Below, piece by piece: positions 24,189-46,368 of a stretch of 64,000 nucleotides of DNA. Numbering within the stretch: the stretch's first letter is position 1; each line of letters starts with the position of its first letter. Under the pieces are notes generated by a model that saw only the letters and a list, made by a program, of their open reading frames with translations, was not told the origin of the DNA and ran no database searches. The translations under genes were made by a program, and so were the position numbers. This DNA comes from a phage. Location of the stretch: sequence record PZ179882.1; one strand, 5' to 3'.

Positions 24189-24660
24189 TTATTTTACCTA
24201 AAACAACAGTAGGAGCATCATCAAATTTATGAATTTTTAGCAAATTTGGATTTAAATTATTCCATAAAGAGGTAATAAAATATGATAGCGCATTTTTTTC
24301 CGTAATTATAAATTTATTTCCCTTATCTATTTTCCAGTCATATATTGAATCATATGAATATAATGGCAACGGTTTATTGTTATAATATGCTTCAGCAACA
24401 TCAATATAGTTAGATTTAGTAAATGCCTGAATTGACATAAATGGAGAATTTCGTACAGTTTCAATAATTCCGATCTTTTTAAGTTTTATTTCAACATCTT
24501 CTGGAACTGGCATTGAAATAAAATCTTCTACTAGATACATGTTATTATCATATCTTTTATCAATCATTACTGCTACTGTAATTGGAACGTCTTTAGCAAA
24601 CGACATACTATTACTGCTAATATACATTTCAAACAAAATCGCTTCCATAATTTTCCTCAA
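24163..24660 (-). CDS. Hypothetical protein, 165 aa
   Basis: ORF track. Confidence 0.5.
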
Positions 24661-24998
24661 TCACAAGATGTAGATGAACAACTAGAATCACAAGAACTTC
24701 CACATGAATCTCCCGCCCATACATGAACAGGAACATTAGTATCATATGAATCAGAACTAGACTGTGTATTCTGTGTGTTAGATGATGTAGTAGGTGTTGA
24801 CCAGCGCCAAGGATTTTTATAATATTCTTGGGCTTCTTCATAAGTCATAGTAACTGCTTCTACTGTTCCATCTCCCATATAAACATATTCAACTACAGTT
24901 AAAGGGAGGTAGTCATTTGAAATAGGAACTACACCTTCTCCGGGAGTTGTAGAGAAAAAATCCGTAAAGAAACTTTTAAACCAATTAAAGATAAACAT
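24657..24998 (-). CDS. Hypothetical protein with Cys/Ser-rich C-terminal tail, 113 aa
   Basis: ORF track; C-terminus [18 protein letters not shown] (five Cys at 4-residue spacing). Confidence 0.5.
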
Positions 24999-25204
24999 TA
25001 CAAAAAGCCTCTTTTGAATTCAACTTGCTTCTCGCCATAATCATAACGAATCTCTGCATTAAATTCGACAGAACCATCTGCGTACATCATAAATGAATGC
25101 ACAACAACTTCTGTAGACCATGGCTGTAGTTCATATTTCTTCATTACATACCGTGAAATGATAATATCTAAATCTTCATTTGGTTTAATCCAGCGATTTA
25201 ACAT
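24998..25204 (-). CDS. Hypothetical protein, 68 aa
   Basis: ORF track. Confidence 0.45.
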   Translation of the reverse strand: MLNRWIKPNEDLDIIISRYVMKKYELQPWSTEVVVHSFMMYADGSVEFNAEIRYDYGEKQVEFKRGFL

Positions 25205-25269
25205 AGTGCTCTCCTCTATAAGATAATTCTATTATACCATACTCATTGTGGAAAGTAAACCGGTAAAAT

Positions 25270-25294
25270 GAAAAAAGGACTCCCGAAGGAGTCC
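25270..25294 (-). terminator. Rho-independent terminator downstream of soc
   Basis: Hairpin ggactcc-cgaa-ggagtcc; minus-strand U6 tract. Confidence 0.6.
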
Positions 25295-25302
25295 TTTAAT
25301 TA

Positions 25303-25539
25303 TTAACCATCTATTGCTGTAGGTGTGAACATTGCAGCATTCTTAGTTTTCCAATCAGCTGCATCAGAAACTACAGTAGAATATGCTGCCTTTTCTGACG
25401 GAAAGATTTGATAATGAGAATCTGCGATACGATGCTCGTTAGAATAAATTTCAAACGGAACAGAAACTTCCATACCTTTAACTTCTTTGCCTTCACCCGC
25501 TGGATGAGTAAAGGTCTTGATATTAACGAAACCACCCAT
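25303..25539 (-). CDS. soc: Small outer capsid protein Soc
   Basis: 78 aa; VNIKTF...HYQIFPSEKAAYSTV matches remembered T4 Soc core; terminator hairpin downstream. Confidence 0.8.
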   Translation of the reverse strand: MGGFVNIKTFTHPAGEGKEVKGMEVSVPFEIYSNEHRIADSHYQIFPSEKAAYSTVVSDAADWKTKNAAMFTPTAIDG

Positions 25540-25747: not shown

Positions 25748-25951
25748 TCATTTTGAATGCTCTATAATTAATTTTAAGGCTTCTTCACTGACAAAAATTT
25801 CATCAGGACCTTCTTCTACAACCCAATCAACCACACGAAGCTGATTAGATAAGAGCTCACATACGAGCTCTTTGTCATAATTTTTAAATAGCTGGTCAAT
25901 ACGTTTCTTACGGGCTTTCTTAAGCTGGCGTTTATTTAAACGAGTCATCAA
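25748..25951 (-). CDS. Hypothetical basic protein, 67 aa
   Basis: ORF track; start overlaps 56 stop. Confidence 0.45.
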   Translation of the reverse strand: MMTRLNKRQLKKARKKRIDQLFKNYDKELVCELLSNQLRVVDWVVEEGPDEIFVSEEALKLIIEHSK

Positions 25952-26466
25952 TAACCTCGGTCTTGACGAGCGAAGTTTTCAGCATTTTTCAGATAATAAA
26001 GTTTAAAGATTTCTTCAGCCGTAAGACCGAGACCTTGGAACATATTAAGAACGAAATGAAGAATATCAATCATTTCAAATTTAATTTCCAACTGGTCTTG
26101 TGGAGACAAATCAGTAATTAGAGTTTCACGGCGTTCACCGTGTTGAGCTTTCCAAGGCTTCCATACAGCAGATGCATCTTTTTCACCATTGCTCATACCG
26201 CCAAGAGATGTCAGAAGTTCACGGAATTCATCGTCAATATAATCTTTCTGATTACGTAGCCAATCAACAACTTCACCTGCAGTAGCCAAATCATCAGGAT
26301 GACGGTTATATTCAGGTTTATCTTTAGCTAAACGAACCTGTAAAGATTTCTGCATATCAAGCATAACCTGCAGCGGGTCTTTTTCATCACCGAGAATATC
26401 CCAGTATTCGTTTTGAGCTTTATCAGCGCCTTCAATCAGTTGTGAACATTCATTAAAGTAAGCCAT
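25948..26466 (-). CDS. 56: dCTP pyrophosphatase gp56 (MazG-like)
   Basis: Track ORF begins at GTG 26557-26559; ATG at 26464-26466 gives 172 aa starting MAYFNECSQLIEG, close to T4 gp56 length (171). Confidence 0.85.
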   Translation of the reverse strand: MAYFNECSQLIEGADKAQNEYWDILGDEKDPLQVMLDMQKSLQVRLAKDKPEYNRHPDDLATAGEVVDWLRNQKDYIDDEFRELLTSLGGMSNGEKDASAVWKPWKAQHGERRETLITDLSPQDQLEIKFEMIDILHFVLNMFQGLGLTAEEIFKLYYLKNAENFARQDRGY

Positions 26467-26537
26467 TATTTTTCCTTTCAATTCATGGATTAGTAGATTA
26501 ATTATACAATAAATATATAAAGCAATAAGGAGGACAT

Positions 26538-26738
26538 ATGGTACAAAAATTAATGGCACTTGTTAATGCCATCAAAGGTAATAAGAAACGTATAGCTTTT
26601 ACTATTTCTGCTATGGTAGGAATTTTACTCTGGAACTTTATTTTATCACCAATTGCAATTGCGCATGGTGTTAATATTCCAGTAGTTACTCTTGATACAT
26701 TCGTAGATCTAGCATTTGCTTTAGTTGGGTTAATTTAA
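26538..26738 (+). CDS. Hypothetical small membrane protein, 66 aa, on opposite strand
   Basis: ATG 26538 preceded by TAAGGAGG at 26526-26533; two hydrophobic segments; lies in the 56-61 intergenic interval. Confidence 0.4.
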   Translation: MVQKLMALVNAIKGNKKRIAFTISAMVGILLWNFILSPIAIAHGVNIPVVTLDTFVDLAFALVGLI

Positions 26739-30891: not shown

Positions 30892-31254
30892 TTAAAAGAA
30901 TTTAAATTTTTTCTTTGACCTTTTATTAAATGCATCTTGTAGTTGCATTGTAATACATTTTTCTACATGAGGAGCTAACTCAGCTTTTCTTTCTTGGTCA
31001 AGAACAGCAAAGTCCATTACAACCTTTCCATCAACCCAATCTAATTTTGTCACATACACAATGTGTGTAGAACCATCTTCTAGTTTAATGACAATCTCCT
31101 GGATAACATTTTCCATGGCAGATTTAATTATCTTAAGAGACTCATTAAAAAGACGTTCTTTTCTTTCTTCTTCCCCCTCCGAAGAGGGGGATTCGTCGAT
31201 AATTTCTAGATCTAAATCTAAATCATCTTTATTCATTAAATTCTTCCATATCAC
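30892..31254 (-). CDS. 40: gp40 head-vertex assembly chaperone-like protein
   Basis: Position between 41 and uvsX; 120 aa from GTG (ATG alternative at 31236); acidic N-terminus. Confidence 0.6.
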   Translation of the reverse strand: MIWKNLMNKDDLDLDLEIIDESPSSEGEEERKERLFNESLKIIKSAMENVIQEIVIKLEDGSTHIVYVTKLDWVDGKVVMDFAVLDQERKAELAPHVEKCITMQLQDAFNKRSKKKFKFF

Positions 31255-32410
31255 TTAACTGTTCGAGGTCAGTTTCTAAATCAGCAGCTGATTTACTTTT
31301 ACTTTCTGGAGATTTAAATTTTTCAACCTTTGAGTTAATCAATTCATCAACTTCAGCTTCAACAATTTCATTACTATCAATAGCACCTAACTGATAAGCA
31401 CGTTTAATAGCATCTCGGAATGGTTGATGCTTAAATAAAGGACCCCAGAATGTAGTGCAGTTGGTATCTTTTGCACGCCAAGATTTTTCTTCGCGAATCA
31501 TCTCACCGGTTTCTTCATCAAGAAATTCACGGGCATACCAGCCATTTTTAGGTTTTACTACAAATCCTAATTCTAGAGCCATATCTAACAATCCAGAATA
31601 AGGATCGATACCACCGTCAAATTTAACATCAATAAAGAATTTACTTTTTTCTTTAACGGTACGAGATTTTTCTACATTTAGAACAAATTGATACCCTTGA
31701 AGATCAGAACCATCTTTAATCTGACGTTTACCGATAATGAATACAGTATCAGCCGAATACATTACGCCTGTACCACCTGTCATCACGGTTTTACTAAACA
31801 TTTCAATTGTTTCAATTGTATGGTTAACCGCAACACACGGAATATTTTTAATGCTAAAATAAGGAGTAACGATACGGAATAATGACTTCAGTGATTTAGC
31901 ACGAGTCATATCTGCAACAGATTTTTCATTCAAGGCATCTTCCGTTTCTTTCTTAGAAGCCATATTACCGATTGAGTCGATGAATACAATAACCTTTTCG
32001 CCACGCTCAATAGCTTCAAGCTGATTCACCATATCAATTTTTAGCTGTTCAACTGACTGAATTGGCGTATGAATTACTCGTTCCGGGTCAACTCCCATGG
32101 ATCGCAAATAAGCTGGAGTAATACCAAATTCGCTATCATAGAATAGACAAACCGCGTCAGGATATTTGTTCAAATATGCCGCAACCATAGTCAAAGACAT
32201 ATTTGATTTAAAGTGTTTAGAAGGCCCTGCGAAAATAGTTAAACCAGACTGCATACCGCCATCAATCGCACCAGAAATAGCAATATTAAGCATTGGAATT
32301 TTTGTACGAATTACATCCTTTTCATTAAAGAATTTAGATGTAGTCAGTTCAGCAGTCATTTTAGAAGTGGAAGCTTTAATCAAACGGGATTTTAAATCTG
32401 CAATAGACAT
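31229..32410 (-). CDS. uvsX: UvsX recombinase (RecA-like)
   Basis: 393 aa; LKSRLIKASTSK...IPMLNIAISGA...CLFYDSEFGITPAYLRSMGVDPERVIHTP closely matches remembered T4 UvsX but with substitutions. Confidence 0.92.
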   Translation of the reverse strand: MSIADLKSRLIKASTSKMTAELTTSKFFNEKDVIRTKIPMLNIAISGAIDGGMQSGLTIFAGPSKHFKSNMSLTMVAAYLNKYPDAVCLFYDSEFGITPAYLRSMGVDPERVIHTPIQSVEQLKIDMVNQLEAIERGEKVIVFIDSIGNMASKKETEDALNEKSVADMTRAKSLKSLFRIVTPYFSIKNIPCVAVNHTIETIEMFSKTVMTGGTGVMYSADTVFIIGKRQIKDGSDLQGYQFVLNVEKSRTVKEKSKFFIDVKFDGGIDPYSGLLDMALELGFVVKPKNGWYAREFLDEETGEMIREEKSWRAKDTNCTTFWGPLFKHQPFRDAIKRAYQLGAIDSNEIVEAEVDELINSKVEKFKSPESKSKSAADLETDLEQLSDMEEFNE

Positions 32411-32487
32411 TCATTTTTTCCATAGGCATCATTATATTTTCCTCACTGGTTAAAGATAGAGTAATTATAACACAATAAATTTAGGCA

Positions 32488-33336
32488 TTAATCAACTGCT
32501 ATTGGATGAATAGCATTAAACTTATGAAATGCTTCTGATTTTTCTTTACGCGAAACACACATGCGAAGAACCTTTAATGGCTCGTCTTCTTCACCCAACG
32601 ATTTTCGTTTTTCAATATTCGATGTTTTCCAACGAGCTTGCTCTGGAAACTCTCTATTGATTTGCTCAAGCGCTCTATTATGTTTAGAATTACTACGAAT
32701 TGAACTACACCCGCCAGGAGCTTGTGCTTTTCCAGATACAACTAGATATTTGAACAAGGCCAAATGCGGATAACCTTGATTAATTAAATTGAGAAATGCA
32801 TACATATCTTCGCATAAATCAATTTTTCCATACCCAATTTGTTCTGTCGTAAGTTTTCCGAGGTCATACCATGTATTCGTGAATCCATATGAATTTTCAC
32901 GATAATTACCCCAAGATGAAGTAATTTTAAAAATTGGTAGACGAGCATGACCGTGATAATACCCGCAATCCATGGCATCTTCAACATATTGAATCAATTC
33001 ATAGAACTGTTCACGAGTTAATTGATTAATTTTATCTACGCGCCGTTTATCGTCTCTCTTTCGTATTGAACTCATACGGATAGTAGTATCATCGTCAATC
33101 ATCCAGATTCGTTGACCTGCATACATATCAGTAATTGCTTTACGAGTACCGGCAATTCCGTTTACATCATCAGGAATAGTTATAATTTTAGCTCTAGACC
33201 CATAGGCATCATAATAAGCTTTTTCTTCATGTTCACGCACTACAATATGGGGTTCATAATCAGTCGGAAACATATCAAGGGCAGAAACTGCCCCGACACG
33301 CTGATAACTTGGAATTACGAATTGAATCATTTCCAC
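32488..33336 (-). CDS. Glycosyltransferase (GT-A-like, DxD motif) at the beta-gt locus; candidate hmC-glucosyl transferase of T2/T6 type
   Basis: 282 aa; motif RIWMIDDDT; lies between uvsX and 42 where T4 has beta-gt, but does not resemble remembered T4 beta-gt. Confidence 0.55.
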   Translation of the reverse strand: MEMIQFVIPSYQRVGAVSALDMFPTDYEPHIVVREHEEKAYYDAYGSRAKIITIPDDVNGIAGTRKAITDMYAGQRIWMIDDDTTIRMSSIRKRDDKRRVDKINQLTREQFYELIQYVEDAMDCGYYHGHARLPIFKITSSWGNYRENSYGFTNTWYDLGKLTTEQIGYGKIDLCEDMYAFLNLINQGYPHLALFKYLVVSGKAQAPGGCSSIRSNSKHNRALEQINREFPEQARWKTSNIEKRKSLGEEDEPLKVLRMCVSRKEKSEAFHKFNAIHPIAVD

Positions 33337-34067
33337 TCACCTTTATAGTCTTTTTTCACAATATGAGTTTCGCCAGTATTCCACCAATGATCAACCAAGT
33401 AAAAATGACGAGAATATACATGAAGACTTCCGACATTCCATATAATAGAACCTGCTTTATACTGACGAGTTGAATCGCCTGCATTCAAATCAGATACTAA
33501 TTTATCTAATACGTATTTTTGCCATGCATAATCATTACGGAATCCGAAGACCACGTCATTTGAGCGCATGCTTACTACTGCATTGACTTTCTTATCACGA
33601 ATCAGGTACTGTACTGTATTAGTACACATGAAATCTGACATACCATCTTTATTGTAATCAAATTGCATGGATGGACGAGTATAAATCATGATACCACGTC
33701 GAGAATCAGGATTTTGACCAAGTTCAGCTAAACACATATCATACTGGGCATAGTTATCTTCTGACCAGATGGCCCAACCATAATTCGAGTTAATTTCGCC
33801 TTTAGAAGATGCTACCTGCTGCCAAATCTTTGGTGTTTCACCTGGAATATCTTTAACAAACAAACTCTTAGATTTATACCATTCAAGTTCACGCTGAATG
33901 TATTCATCATTAAGAGCGCCAAAAATAAACGGTTCATCTGCTACAAATGATGCGCCAATAATTTCAATAGTTTTAACACCAGTTTTATCAATTACGAAAT
34001 CTTTTTCCTTTAATGCAGTTCCCAAATAAAAACGGATTTCTTCAACTGTCATAGAGTCACTAATCAT
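33327..34067 (-). CDS. 42: dCMP hydroxymethylase gp42
   Basis: 246 aa; MISDSMTVEEIR and thymidylate-synthase-like fold motifs match remembered T4 gp42. Confidence 0.92.
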   Translation of the reverse strand: MISDSMTVEEIRFYLGTALKEKDFVIDKTGVKTIEIIGASFVADEPFIFGALNDEYIQRELEWYKSKSLFVKDIPGETPKIWQQVASSKGEINSNYGWAIWSEDNYAQYDMCLAELGQNPDSRRGIMIYTRPSMQFDYNKDGMSDFMCTNTVQYLIRDKKVNAVVSMRSNDVVFGFRNDYAWQKYVLDKLVSDLNAGDSTRQYKAGSIIWNVGSLHVYSRHFYLVDHWWNTGETHIVKKDYKGEWK

Positions 34068-34220
34068 TTAAACCTCAATTGATACATTCATATTTAACTT
34101 GTAACAGTAATAAACCCCAACCTAAAATAATAGTTGGAATCATAAGAGGAACCGTTACACTATAGTATATACTTATTATAATCATCAAGATTAAAAGCAA
34201 TGCTGTTATAATTTTGCTTT

Positions 34221-34472
34221 TCATTCCTTCTCTCTGATGATAATTACCTGATTTGGCTGCGCAGACTTTTTAGTTTCACCTGCAATTGACCAAATAAATG
34301 TAATAAACCAACCAATAATTGACCAGTTAAACAGCAAAGATGTGAAAAAGATTCCTACTGTCGATTTTGACCCACGCATCAAAGCAATAAACCATGGAAG
34401 CATGTATATAATAATAGCCAACACACCTGAAACTAAAACCATAAAAATTGAACCTGCTACTAAAGTTTCCAT
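34221..34472 (-). CDS. imm: Immunity protein Imm (superinfection exclusion, inner membrane)
   Basis: 83 aa, two TM segments, position between 42 and 43 as in T4. Confidence 0.75.
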   Translation of the reverse strand: METLVAGSIFMVLVSGVLAIIIYMLPWFIALMRGSKSTVGIFFTSLLFNWSIIGWFITFIWSIAGETKKSAQPNQVIIIREKE

Positions 34473-34870: not shown

Positions 34871-35107
34871 TCAAATGCAAGTAGTAATTACTCCAGTAGT
34901 GCTTATGCAGGTATTACCCATTTGCACACCTAAAGATCCATTTGTATTCACATGAAGATTATCATCAATTTTAACTGATATTTTACCATTAGTGTGAATA
35001 ATAGTATTAGATTCAATCACAGGTTGAGTATCATTTTCAACACTAACAAATGGAACTGCTGCTAATGCAACTAAACAAACTGCTAAGCAACCCATAACAA
35101 TTTTCAT
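34871..35107 (-). CDS. Putative secreted/membrane protein, ~78 aa
   Basis: Track ORF starts at TTG; ATG 35105-35107 (MKIVMGCLAVCLVALAAVPF) with GGAG SD, downstream of promoter 35142-35171. Confidence 0.45.
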   Translation of the reverse strand: MKIVMGCLAVCLVALAAVPFVSVENDTQPVIESNTIIHTNGKISVKIDDNLHVNTNGSLGVQMGNTCISTTGVITTCI

Positions 35108-35141
35108 TTTATTCTCCAAATCCGTATTAGTTGATAGTTGT

Positions 35142-44699: not shown

Positions 44700-44717
44700 A
44701 AAGGGCCGAAGCCCTTT
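44700..44717 (-). other. C(UUCG)G-type hairpin at alpha-gt stop
   Basis: aaagggc-cgaa-gcccttt. Confidence 0.5.
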
Positions 44718-45918
44718 ATTTTGTAATAATGTCAAACTGTTCTTTAAAGCAGAAGCTTGAATCTTGATGCTGATACAAAAATTCATAAGCTTTTTCGCGT
44801 TCGCGATCATAAAGAGCTCGGTCAGATGACAGTTCTTTAATACGTTCAAATGTTGATTCCATGTCATTTTCATCAAACCAAACGATACCGCTATCGTGTG
44901 AAATTAATGGAGTATTATCAACACGGAATTTTAAATTTTCGCCAGTAGATTTCCAAAATACTGGAATTGTTCCACATGCACCAAGCTCGAGATGAGTGTA
45001 TTCTAAAGAACGCTGTAGATATTTTTTGTCCAACTTACTCAGCTGATAACCAAATCCGGATTTACTCATGCGTTCAAGCATTTCGCTATTTACATAACGG
45101 TCGAGAATTTGCGTTGGCAAATTAGGAGCAATTTTAATTTGGTCTACTTGATGAAGACGATAATACTCGTATGGAATTCCTTTTTCTTTAATAGGAATGA
45201 ATGCTGGAGAACGTTCCAGACCTTCCATAATAGTACTTAGTCCTGCAGGTTTAAGATGTTTTTCATGAAAATCAAACATCTGATAAAAGCCTTTCCATGT
45301 AGTAGTACGACCAATCCAACGGTTGATATTCATGTTAATTTCAGAAACATCTTTCCAGTAGGTTGATCGAACCTTCGCAATATCCATAGGAGGCTGAAAG
45401 TTATATACGGTCGGTGCTTCTTCAATATCATCAAACAGAGAAACAGTTTCCGGATACCATTCTTTCATCAAAACTTTATTAAAGTCACCATTATCAGAAT
45501 GGCTAAAAATAACATCAGCTCGACGAACAGTTTCTTCTAATCCCAAATTTCGACGCAAAGAAAGAGAAGAATGGTCATGCTGATAAACTACAACACGAAC
45601 CGAAGGTTTAATGTTATCAATAATTTTTTTATAGTTATTAATGGTGTCTTCTTCTACTGAAGTAGCAGGAACTGAATTGATAATTAAAATATCGCAATCA
45701 TTTACCAGTTTAAGTGTTTTATCGTATTCTTTTGCCAATAAAACCGGAATTGAAAATGACTTATAATCATGTGCGCAATTACGAGTAAATGATTTATCTT
45801 TAGCATAAACCAAAGTTACTTCATGACCATTTTTAATAAACCAATCACGTTGCTCAAGAGAAAATTTAGTTACACCGCAACCTTCAAGACCTCGAGCCAT
45901 AAAAATACATACTTTCAT
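44716..45918 (-). CDS. agt: DNA alpha-glucosyltransferase
   Basis: 400 aa; ICIFMARGLEGCGVTKFSLEQRDWFIKNGHEVTLVYAKDKSFTR and C-terminus ...SSFCFKEQFDIITK match remembered T4 alpha-gt. Confidence 0.92.
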   Translation of the reverse strand: MKVCIFMARGLEGCGVTKFSLEQRDWFIKNGHEVTLVYAKDKSFTRNCAHDYKSFSIPVLLAKEYDKTLKLVNDCDILIINSVPATSVEEDTINNYKKIIDNIKPSVRVVVYQHDHSSLSLRRNLGLEETVRRADVIFSHSDNGDFNKVLMKEWYPETVSLFDDIEEAPTVYNFQPPMDIAKVRSTYWKDVSEINMNINRWIGRTTTWKGFYQMFDFHEKHLKPAGLSTIMEGLERSPAFIPIKEKGIPYEYYRLHQVDQIKIAPNLPTQILDRYVNSEMLERMSKSGFGYQLSKLDKKYLQRSLEYTHLELGACGTIPVFWKSTGENLKFRVDNTPLISHDSGIVWFDENDMESTFERIKELSSDRALYDREREKAYEFLYQHQDSSFCFKEQFDIITK

Positions 45919-46161
45919 TTAATATCCTCATTGTTTTGGTTTATTTTACCAAAAATTTATAAAGCAATATAGGAGCCGAAGCTCCTATCCGCATAATACG
46001 CCATACAGAGGCTCATTAGAGCTTCTAAATTTTATACGCTTATATGTTATAGTTCCTTCTGCTTTAGCTTTATCATGAGACTCTTTAAAGTGTCTCATCA
46101 TTTCTACTTTAGAGGAACGAATTTTATTATAATCTATTTCAGAAGTCTGGGTGTTCATCTT

Positions 46162-46368
46162 TCACAGTTGCCACCATTTTTTGACTTGATAAGAATCAAC
46201 CCACACTTTCATATTAGGGTCTGCTCTTACAATAGGAGGATTAACTTCTTTGATTGAACTATCATGGTATTCTTTTTCAGAAATTTTCACGCAAAGATGA
46301 CCATTCAAAGATTCAGTAAATCCTGCATTAATTTTAAGACGCTTGAATTTTACGTGTGTAAGCATCAA
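46162..46368 (-). CDS. Hypothetical protein, 68 aa
   Basis: ORF track. Confidence 0.4.
   Translation of the reverse strand: MMLTHVKFKRLKINAGFTESLNGHLCVKISEKEYHDSSIKEVNPPIVRADPNMKVWVDSYQVKKWWQL

Follow-up and report, generated by a model that had tools for sequence, protein, structure and literature searches.

Identity of the glycosyltransferase at the T4 beta-gt locus

We asked which enzyme the phage of record PZ179882.1 carries at the position where T4 encodes its beta-glucosyltransferase (beta-gt), and which sugars its DNA would consequently be expected to bear. The stretch analyzed, hereafter the window, comprises 64,000 nucleotides. The gene in question lies on the minus strand between uvsX (31229-32410, minus strand; PF21134 and PF00154), which forms its downstream flank, and gene 42 (33327-34067, minus strand). 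A first-pass annotation had placed a glycosyltransferase other than T4 beta-gt in this interval, and both the ORF map and a BLASTP comparison with T4 beta-gt (best E value, 4.1) bore this out. Base composition was even over the region, with no foreign-insert signature seen, and the 24-kb neighborhood displayed about 97% nucleotide identity to many Tequatrovirus genomes.

The encoded protein matched the Pfam family PF20691 (TET-associated glycosyltransferase [TAGT]) with an E value of 3e-10 and a score of 40.7 bits, above the curated cutoff of 27.5 bits. The match covered residues 5 to 209 of the protein and positions 2 to 205 of the 205-position profile. In addition, the protein matched PHROG 842 (phrog_842, "beta-glucosyl-HMC-alpha-glucosyltransferase") at an E value of 5e-89. 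Comparison with the T2/T6 beta-alpha-glucosyltransferases revealed 98% identity, free of gaps, to the T2 protein (AP018813, 22282-23124) and 97% identity to the T6 protein (MH550421, ggt; AP018814, 22134-22973). The length differences between the T6 records and the window gene are due solely to lesions in those records. As in the window, the gene is located between uvsX and gene 42 in the maps of T2 and T6. These T2 and T6 genes were reportedly described in a cloning paper of 1993.

Conversely, no similarity to T4 beta-gt was found by BLASTP, and PF09198, the Pfam family of T4 beta-gt, gave no match in the protein even at E values up to 1. An alignment with T4 beta-gt, which the first-pass annotation had named as one of two observations that would speak against its proposal, was thus looked for and not found. 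Orthology with T4 beta-gt was ruled out on these two grounds. From gene identity, synteny, a conserved motif, the fold class, and the presence of partner genes, we consider it highly probable (roughly 0.93) that the gene encodes a T2/T6-type beta-glucosyl-HMC-alpha-glucosyltransferase (ba-gt, also known as ggt or TAGT), a GT-A-fold enzyme of the DxD type. We infer its donor, linkage, and product from the biochemistry and genetics of the T2 and T6 enzymes.

Start codon and integrity of the gene

The longest mechanical ORF is uninterrupted, spans 32488-33336 on the minus strand, and would encode 282 amino acids from a GTG at 33336. The 282-residue enzyme proposed initially therefore corresponds to a real ORF, although its length probably needs a 6-nt correction at the start: translation most likely begins at the ATG at 33330, for a coding sequence at 32488-33330 (minus strand) and a protein of 280 residues. 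This ATG overlaps the TGA stop codon of gene 42 in an ATGA arrangement (33330-33327). It is preceded, at a spacing of 5 nt, by the Shine-Dalgarno-like sequence AAGGTGAG (33336-33343, minus strand), which lies within the 3' end of gene 42 and is identical in T2 and T6. In the T2 record, the gene is annotated from the equivalent ATG (843 nt, 280 amino acids), and full-length homologues begin at the equivalent methionine, the majority of them with MIQFVIPSY. We preferred the ATG over the GTG on account of its overlap with gene 42, the position of the Shine-Dalgarno-like sequence, the annotation of T2, and the N termini of the homologues.

In each of the two public T6 records, the gene has a lesion of its own. 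In MH550421, a CAG-to-TAG change creates an amber codon at position 10 (excerpt L001, 4951-4980, minus strand), and the gene is annotated from an internal methionine as 261 amino acids. In AP018814 (excerpt L004, 2135-2974), one GAT is lost, which reduces an invariant DDD motif to DD and the protein to 279 residues. MH550421 has a perfect (GAT)3 run at this motif; the window (33088-33096) and T2 read GAC GAT GAT and are intact. Three origins are conceivable for the T6 lesions: laboratory stocks may have lost the gene, the triplet run may have slipped, or the sequences may contain errors.

We considered whether ba-gt might be inactive or barely active, so that the DNA would carry essentially alpha-monoglucosylated and unglucosylated hmC, in a pattern like that of T2 or more extreme. 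The T2 gene is intact and 98% identical to that of the window, and yet only about 5% gentiobiosyl-hmC is formed in T2; moreover, the lesions in both T6 records indicate that loss in culture is evidently possible. However, the window ORF is intact and retains the ATGA-overlap start, the Shine-Dalgarno-like sequence, and all invariant residues, and about 40% gentiobiosyl-hmC is found in environmental relatives of the genus Tequatrovirus that share this gene set (PMC13390438). We therefore regard an inactive enzyme as very unlikely.

Two further ORFs were observed upstream of gene 42. One, at 34075-34224 (minus strand), encodes a strongly hydrophobic 49-residue protein between gene 42 and imm, overlaps imm by 4 nt, and matches phrog_3610 (unknown function) at an E value of 6e-26. 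Its T4 counterpart (excerpt L003, 7228-7377) differs by two substitutions only and is unannotated in NC_000866. The other, at 34871-35119 (minus strand), lies between imm.1 and gene 43 and encodes an 82-residue protein with a signal-peptide-like N terminus that belongs to phrog_4189 (unknown function). At this position, T2 has an annotated coding sequence mislabeled "tail tape measure protein," while T4 and T6 have a gap of only about 180 nt.

Conserved motif, fold, and private substitutions

The first-pass annotation had described a GT-A-like enzyme with a DxD motif in the sequence RIWMIDDDT. This sequence is present in the protein, and its DDD (D79 to D81 in 280-residue numbering) is encoded by GAC GAT GAT at 33096-33088 (feature 33088-33096, minus strand). 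A word-indexed search returned only 11 homologues, down to 28% identity by BLASTP (32% in the alignment). All 10 aligned homologues, the most distant at 32% identity, retained the DDD, and an N-terminal PSY.R, D175, and a GG.S..R motif were likewise invariant. The DDD presumably binds the metal and the UDP-sugar, as the DxD motif of a GT-A enzyme.

AlphaFold2, run on the homologue alignment, gave a model of medium confidence (pLDDT, 72.8; pTM, 0.76), with good prediction of the N-terminal alpha/beta core and with pLDDT values below 50 in two loops, residues 127 to 141 and 197 to 210. In the model, the DDD follows strand E74-79 of a Rossmann-like core. The protein thus appears as a single-domain GT-A-type structure with a conserved DxD motif, and the model did not match the two-domain GT-B fold of T4 beta-gt. 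A search of the PDB with the protein sequence yielded chance matches only (E > 1), indicating that no homologue has been solved.

These results bear on the idea that the gene is a diverged T4 beta-gt orthologue that would attach beta-linked glucose directly to hmC. Its map position, in the same slot as T4 beta-gt, is the one observation in favor of this idea. Since the two proteins share no sequence similarity, belong to different Pfam families, and are assigned to GT-A here (by the model) and to GT-B for T4 beta-gt (PMC13216743), we consider this reading already refuted at the levels of sequence and fold, and its probability negligible.

The T2/T6-type enzyme of the window differs from both the T2 and the T6 protein by four private substitutions, M89I, R95K, C97R, and V101I (280-residue numbering), clustered at residues 89 to 101 just past the DDD. 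This segment is also variable among close homologues. The window protein has neither the T6-specific changes Y40N, D55G, and R106H nor the T2-specific changes R11H and P251S. There is a slight chance that the substitutions at residues 89 to 101 alter activity or processivity, producing a ratio of mono- to diglucosylated hmC unlike that of T2 or T6. If so, the altered ratio would give the phage a distinct sensitivity profile to glycosylase-type defenses, and the patch would bear on why gentiobiosyl-hmC amounts to 5% in T2 but 72% in T6 although the two enzymes are nearly identical.

The same substitutions could be taken to suggest a TAGT-family enzyme with a specificity unlike that of T2 and T6, using another sugar donor, acceptor, or linkage. 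TAGT is a broad family and not uniform in function, as many members are found in the absence of alpha-gt or beta-gt (PMC13216743). On the other hand, the protein is 97 to 98% identical to the genetically defined T2/T6 enzyme and keeps every family-invariant residue, its partner alpha-gt and its locus are unchanged relative to T2 and T6, and the substituted patch falls in a segment where close homologues vary too. We judge a different specificity to be even less probable than an inactive enzyme.

Partner genes and the expected DNA modification

The enzymes that would make the acceptor of a T2/T6-type ba-gt are encoded in the same window. Gene 42 (PF00303), for the dCMP hydroxymethylase that supplies the hm-dCMP precursor, is 96% identical to T4 gp42, and alpha-gt (44716-45918, minus strand), for a 400-residue DNA alpha-glucosyltransferase, matched PF11440 (E value, 2e-236) and PHROG 2888. 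The presence of both genes was correctly noted in the first-pass annotation. The alpha-gt protein is 91% identical to both T4 and T6 alpha-gt. A further ORF at 25948-26559 (minus strand) encodes a gp56-like NTP pyrophosphohydrolase (PHROG 173, E value of 2e-46; PF08761 match), presumed from its family and map position to be the gp56 dCTPase. These coordinates are those of the longest ORF; the family match does not set in until residue 32, so translation probably begins farther inside the ORF.

In the pathway that we propose, gp42 would produce hm-dCMP, and the phage polymerase would incorporate hmC into DNA. Alpha-gt would then attach glucose to hmC in the alpha linkage, and ba-gt would extend some of the alpha-glucosyl-hmC by a second, beta-1,6-linked glucose from UDP-glucose, yielding gentiobiosyl-hmC. 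This order of addition is that described for T2 and T6 (PMC6024577; PMC13216743). The predicted reaction (UDP-glucose plus alpha-glucosyl-hmC DNA to beta-1,6-glucosyl-alpha-glucosyl-hmC) rests on T2/T6 biochemistry and on a T6 ba-gt deletion, which left only alpha-glucosyl-hmC and rendered T6 more susceptible to the glycosylase Brig1 (PMC11078745). Since the phage has no T4-type beta-gt, its DNA should carry hmC, alpha-glucosyl-hmC, and gentiobiosyl-hmC and be devoid of beta-glucosyl-hmC. The T2/T6-like sugar pattern suggested at the outset is thus supported, as far as sequence comparison can indicate, by the 98% and 97% identities, the PHROG 842 match, the locus, and the partner genes. Gentiobiosyl-hmC accounts for 5% in T2 versus 72% in T6 (PMC13390438; PMC11078745), and because phages whose enzymes are 97 to 98% identical to that of the window differ to this extent, the diglucosylated proportion is not readable from the sequence. 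In environmental Tequatroviruses that carry alpha-gt and TAGT without beta-gt, hmC, alpha-glucosyl-hmC, and gentiobiosyl-hmC were found by HPLC/MS at a ratio of about 1:2:2 (PMC13390438).

For an annotator, ba-gt indicates this expected chemistry, which bears on how strongly this phage would be affected by Brig1-type glycosylases, BapA/Brig3, and type IV enzymes, as well as on which restriction enzymes can cut its DNA. Wild-type T6 DNA was resistant to Brig1 in vitro (PMC11078745), and gentiobiosyl-hmC was not acted on by the glucosidase BapA (bioRxiv 10.64898/2026.02.25.707755). Gentiobiosyl-hmC has also been reported as a target of GmrSD (PMC13216743).

Distribution of ba-gt and beta-gt

In the phage collection, ba-gt was found at 90% nucleotide identity or more in 475 records, all full length. 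T4 beta-gt was found in only 29 records, representing T4 and its closest relatives. By these counts, T4 is unusual, and the phage of the window is not. This agrees with published work, in which almost every glucosylating phage combines a TAGT with alpha-gt or beta-gt, and alpha-gt occurs together with beta-gt in only 6 of 753 genomes (PMC13216743). TAGT has been described as syntenic with T4 beta-gt (PMC13390438). Most of the genus Tequatrovirus carries an enzyme of the ba-gt type between uvsX and gene 42; the gene, locus, fold, and product have all been published, and nothing here is biologically new.

In RB55 (KM607002) and RB59 (KM607003), a gene 100% identical to T4 beta-gt (24364-25419) is labeled "beta-glucosyl-HMC-alpha-glucosyl-transferase." This label is an annotation error and could mislead name-based surveys.

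Comparison with known systems

The closest counterparts are the ba-gt genes of T2 and T6, which share with the window gene the 280-residue length, the uvsX/gene 42 locus, the ATGA overlap, the DDD, and the partner genes; a handful of substitutions is the only difference.

T4 beta-gt (PF09198) resembles ba-gt in its equivalent map position beside gene 42 and in glucosylating a modified cytosine in DNA with UDP-glucose, as known from T-even biochemistry (PMC6024577). The two differ in fold, which is GT-B for T4 beta-gt (PMC13216743) and predicted to be GT-A for the window enzyme, and in acceptor, which is bare hmC for T4 beta-gt and would be alpha-glucosyl-hmC for ba-gt. The loci also differ, as T4 has the homing endonuclease gene segA between uvsX and beta-gt. 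In the window, segA is clearly absent, since only 77 nt (32411-32487) separate ba-gt from uvsX. The T6 annotation lists neither segA at this locus nor mobB, which lies beside alpha-gt in T4; mobB appears absent from 45919-46333 of the window, upstream of alpha-gt, judging from ORF spacing alone.

Cellular GT-A enzymes of the GT2 family, such as TarP (6h1j), TarS (5tze), and BcsA (4p00), display just 6 to 15% sequence identity to ba-gt. Their acceptor is a polysaccharide or teichoic acid, whereas that of ba-gt is a sugar on DNA.
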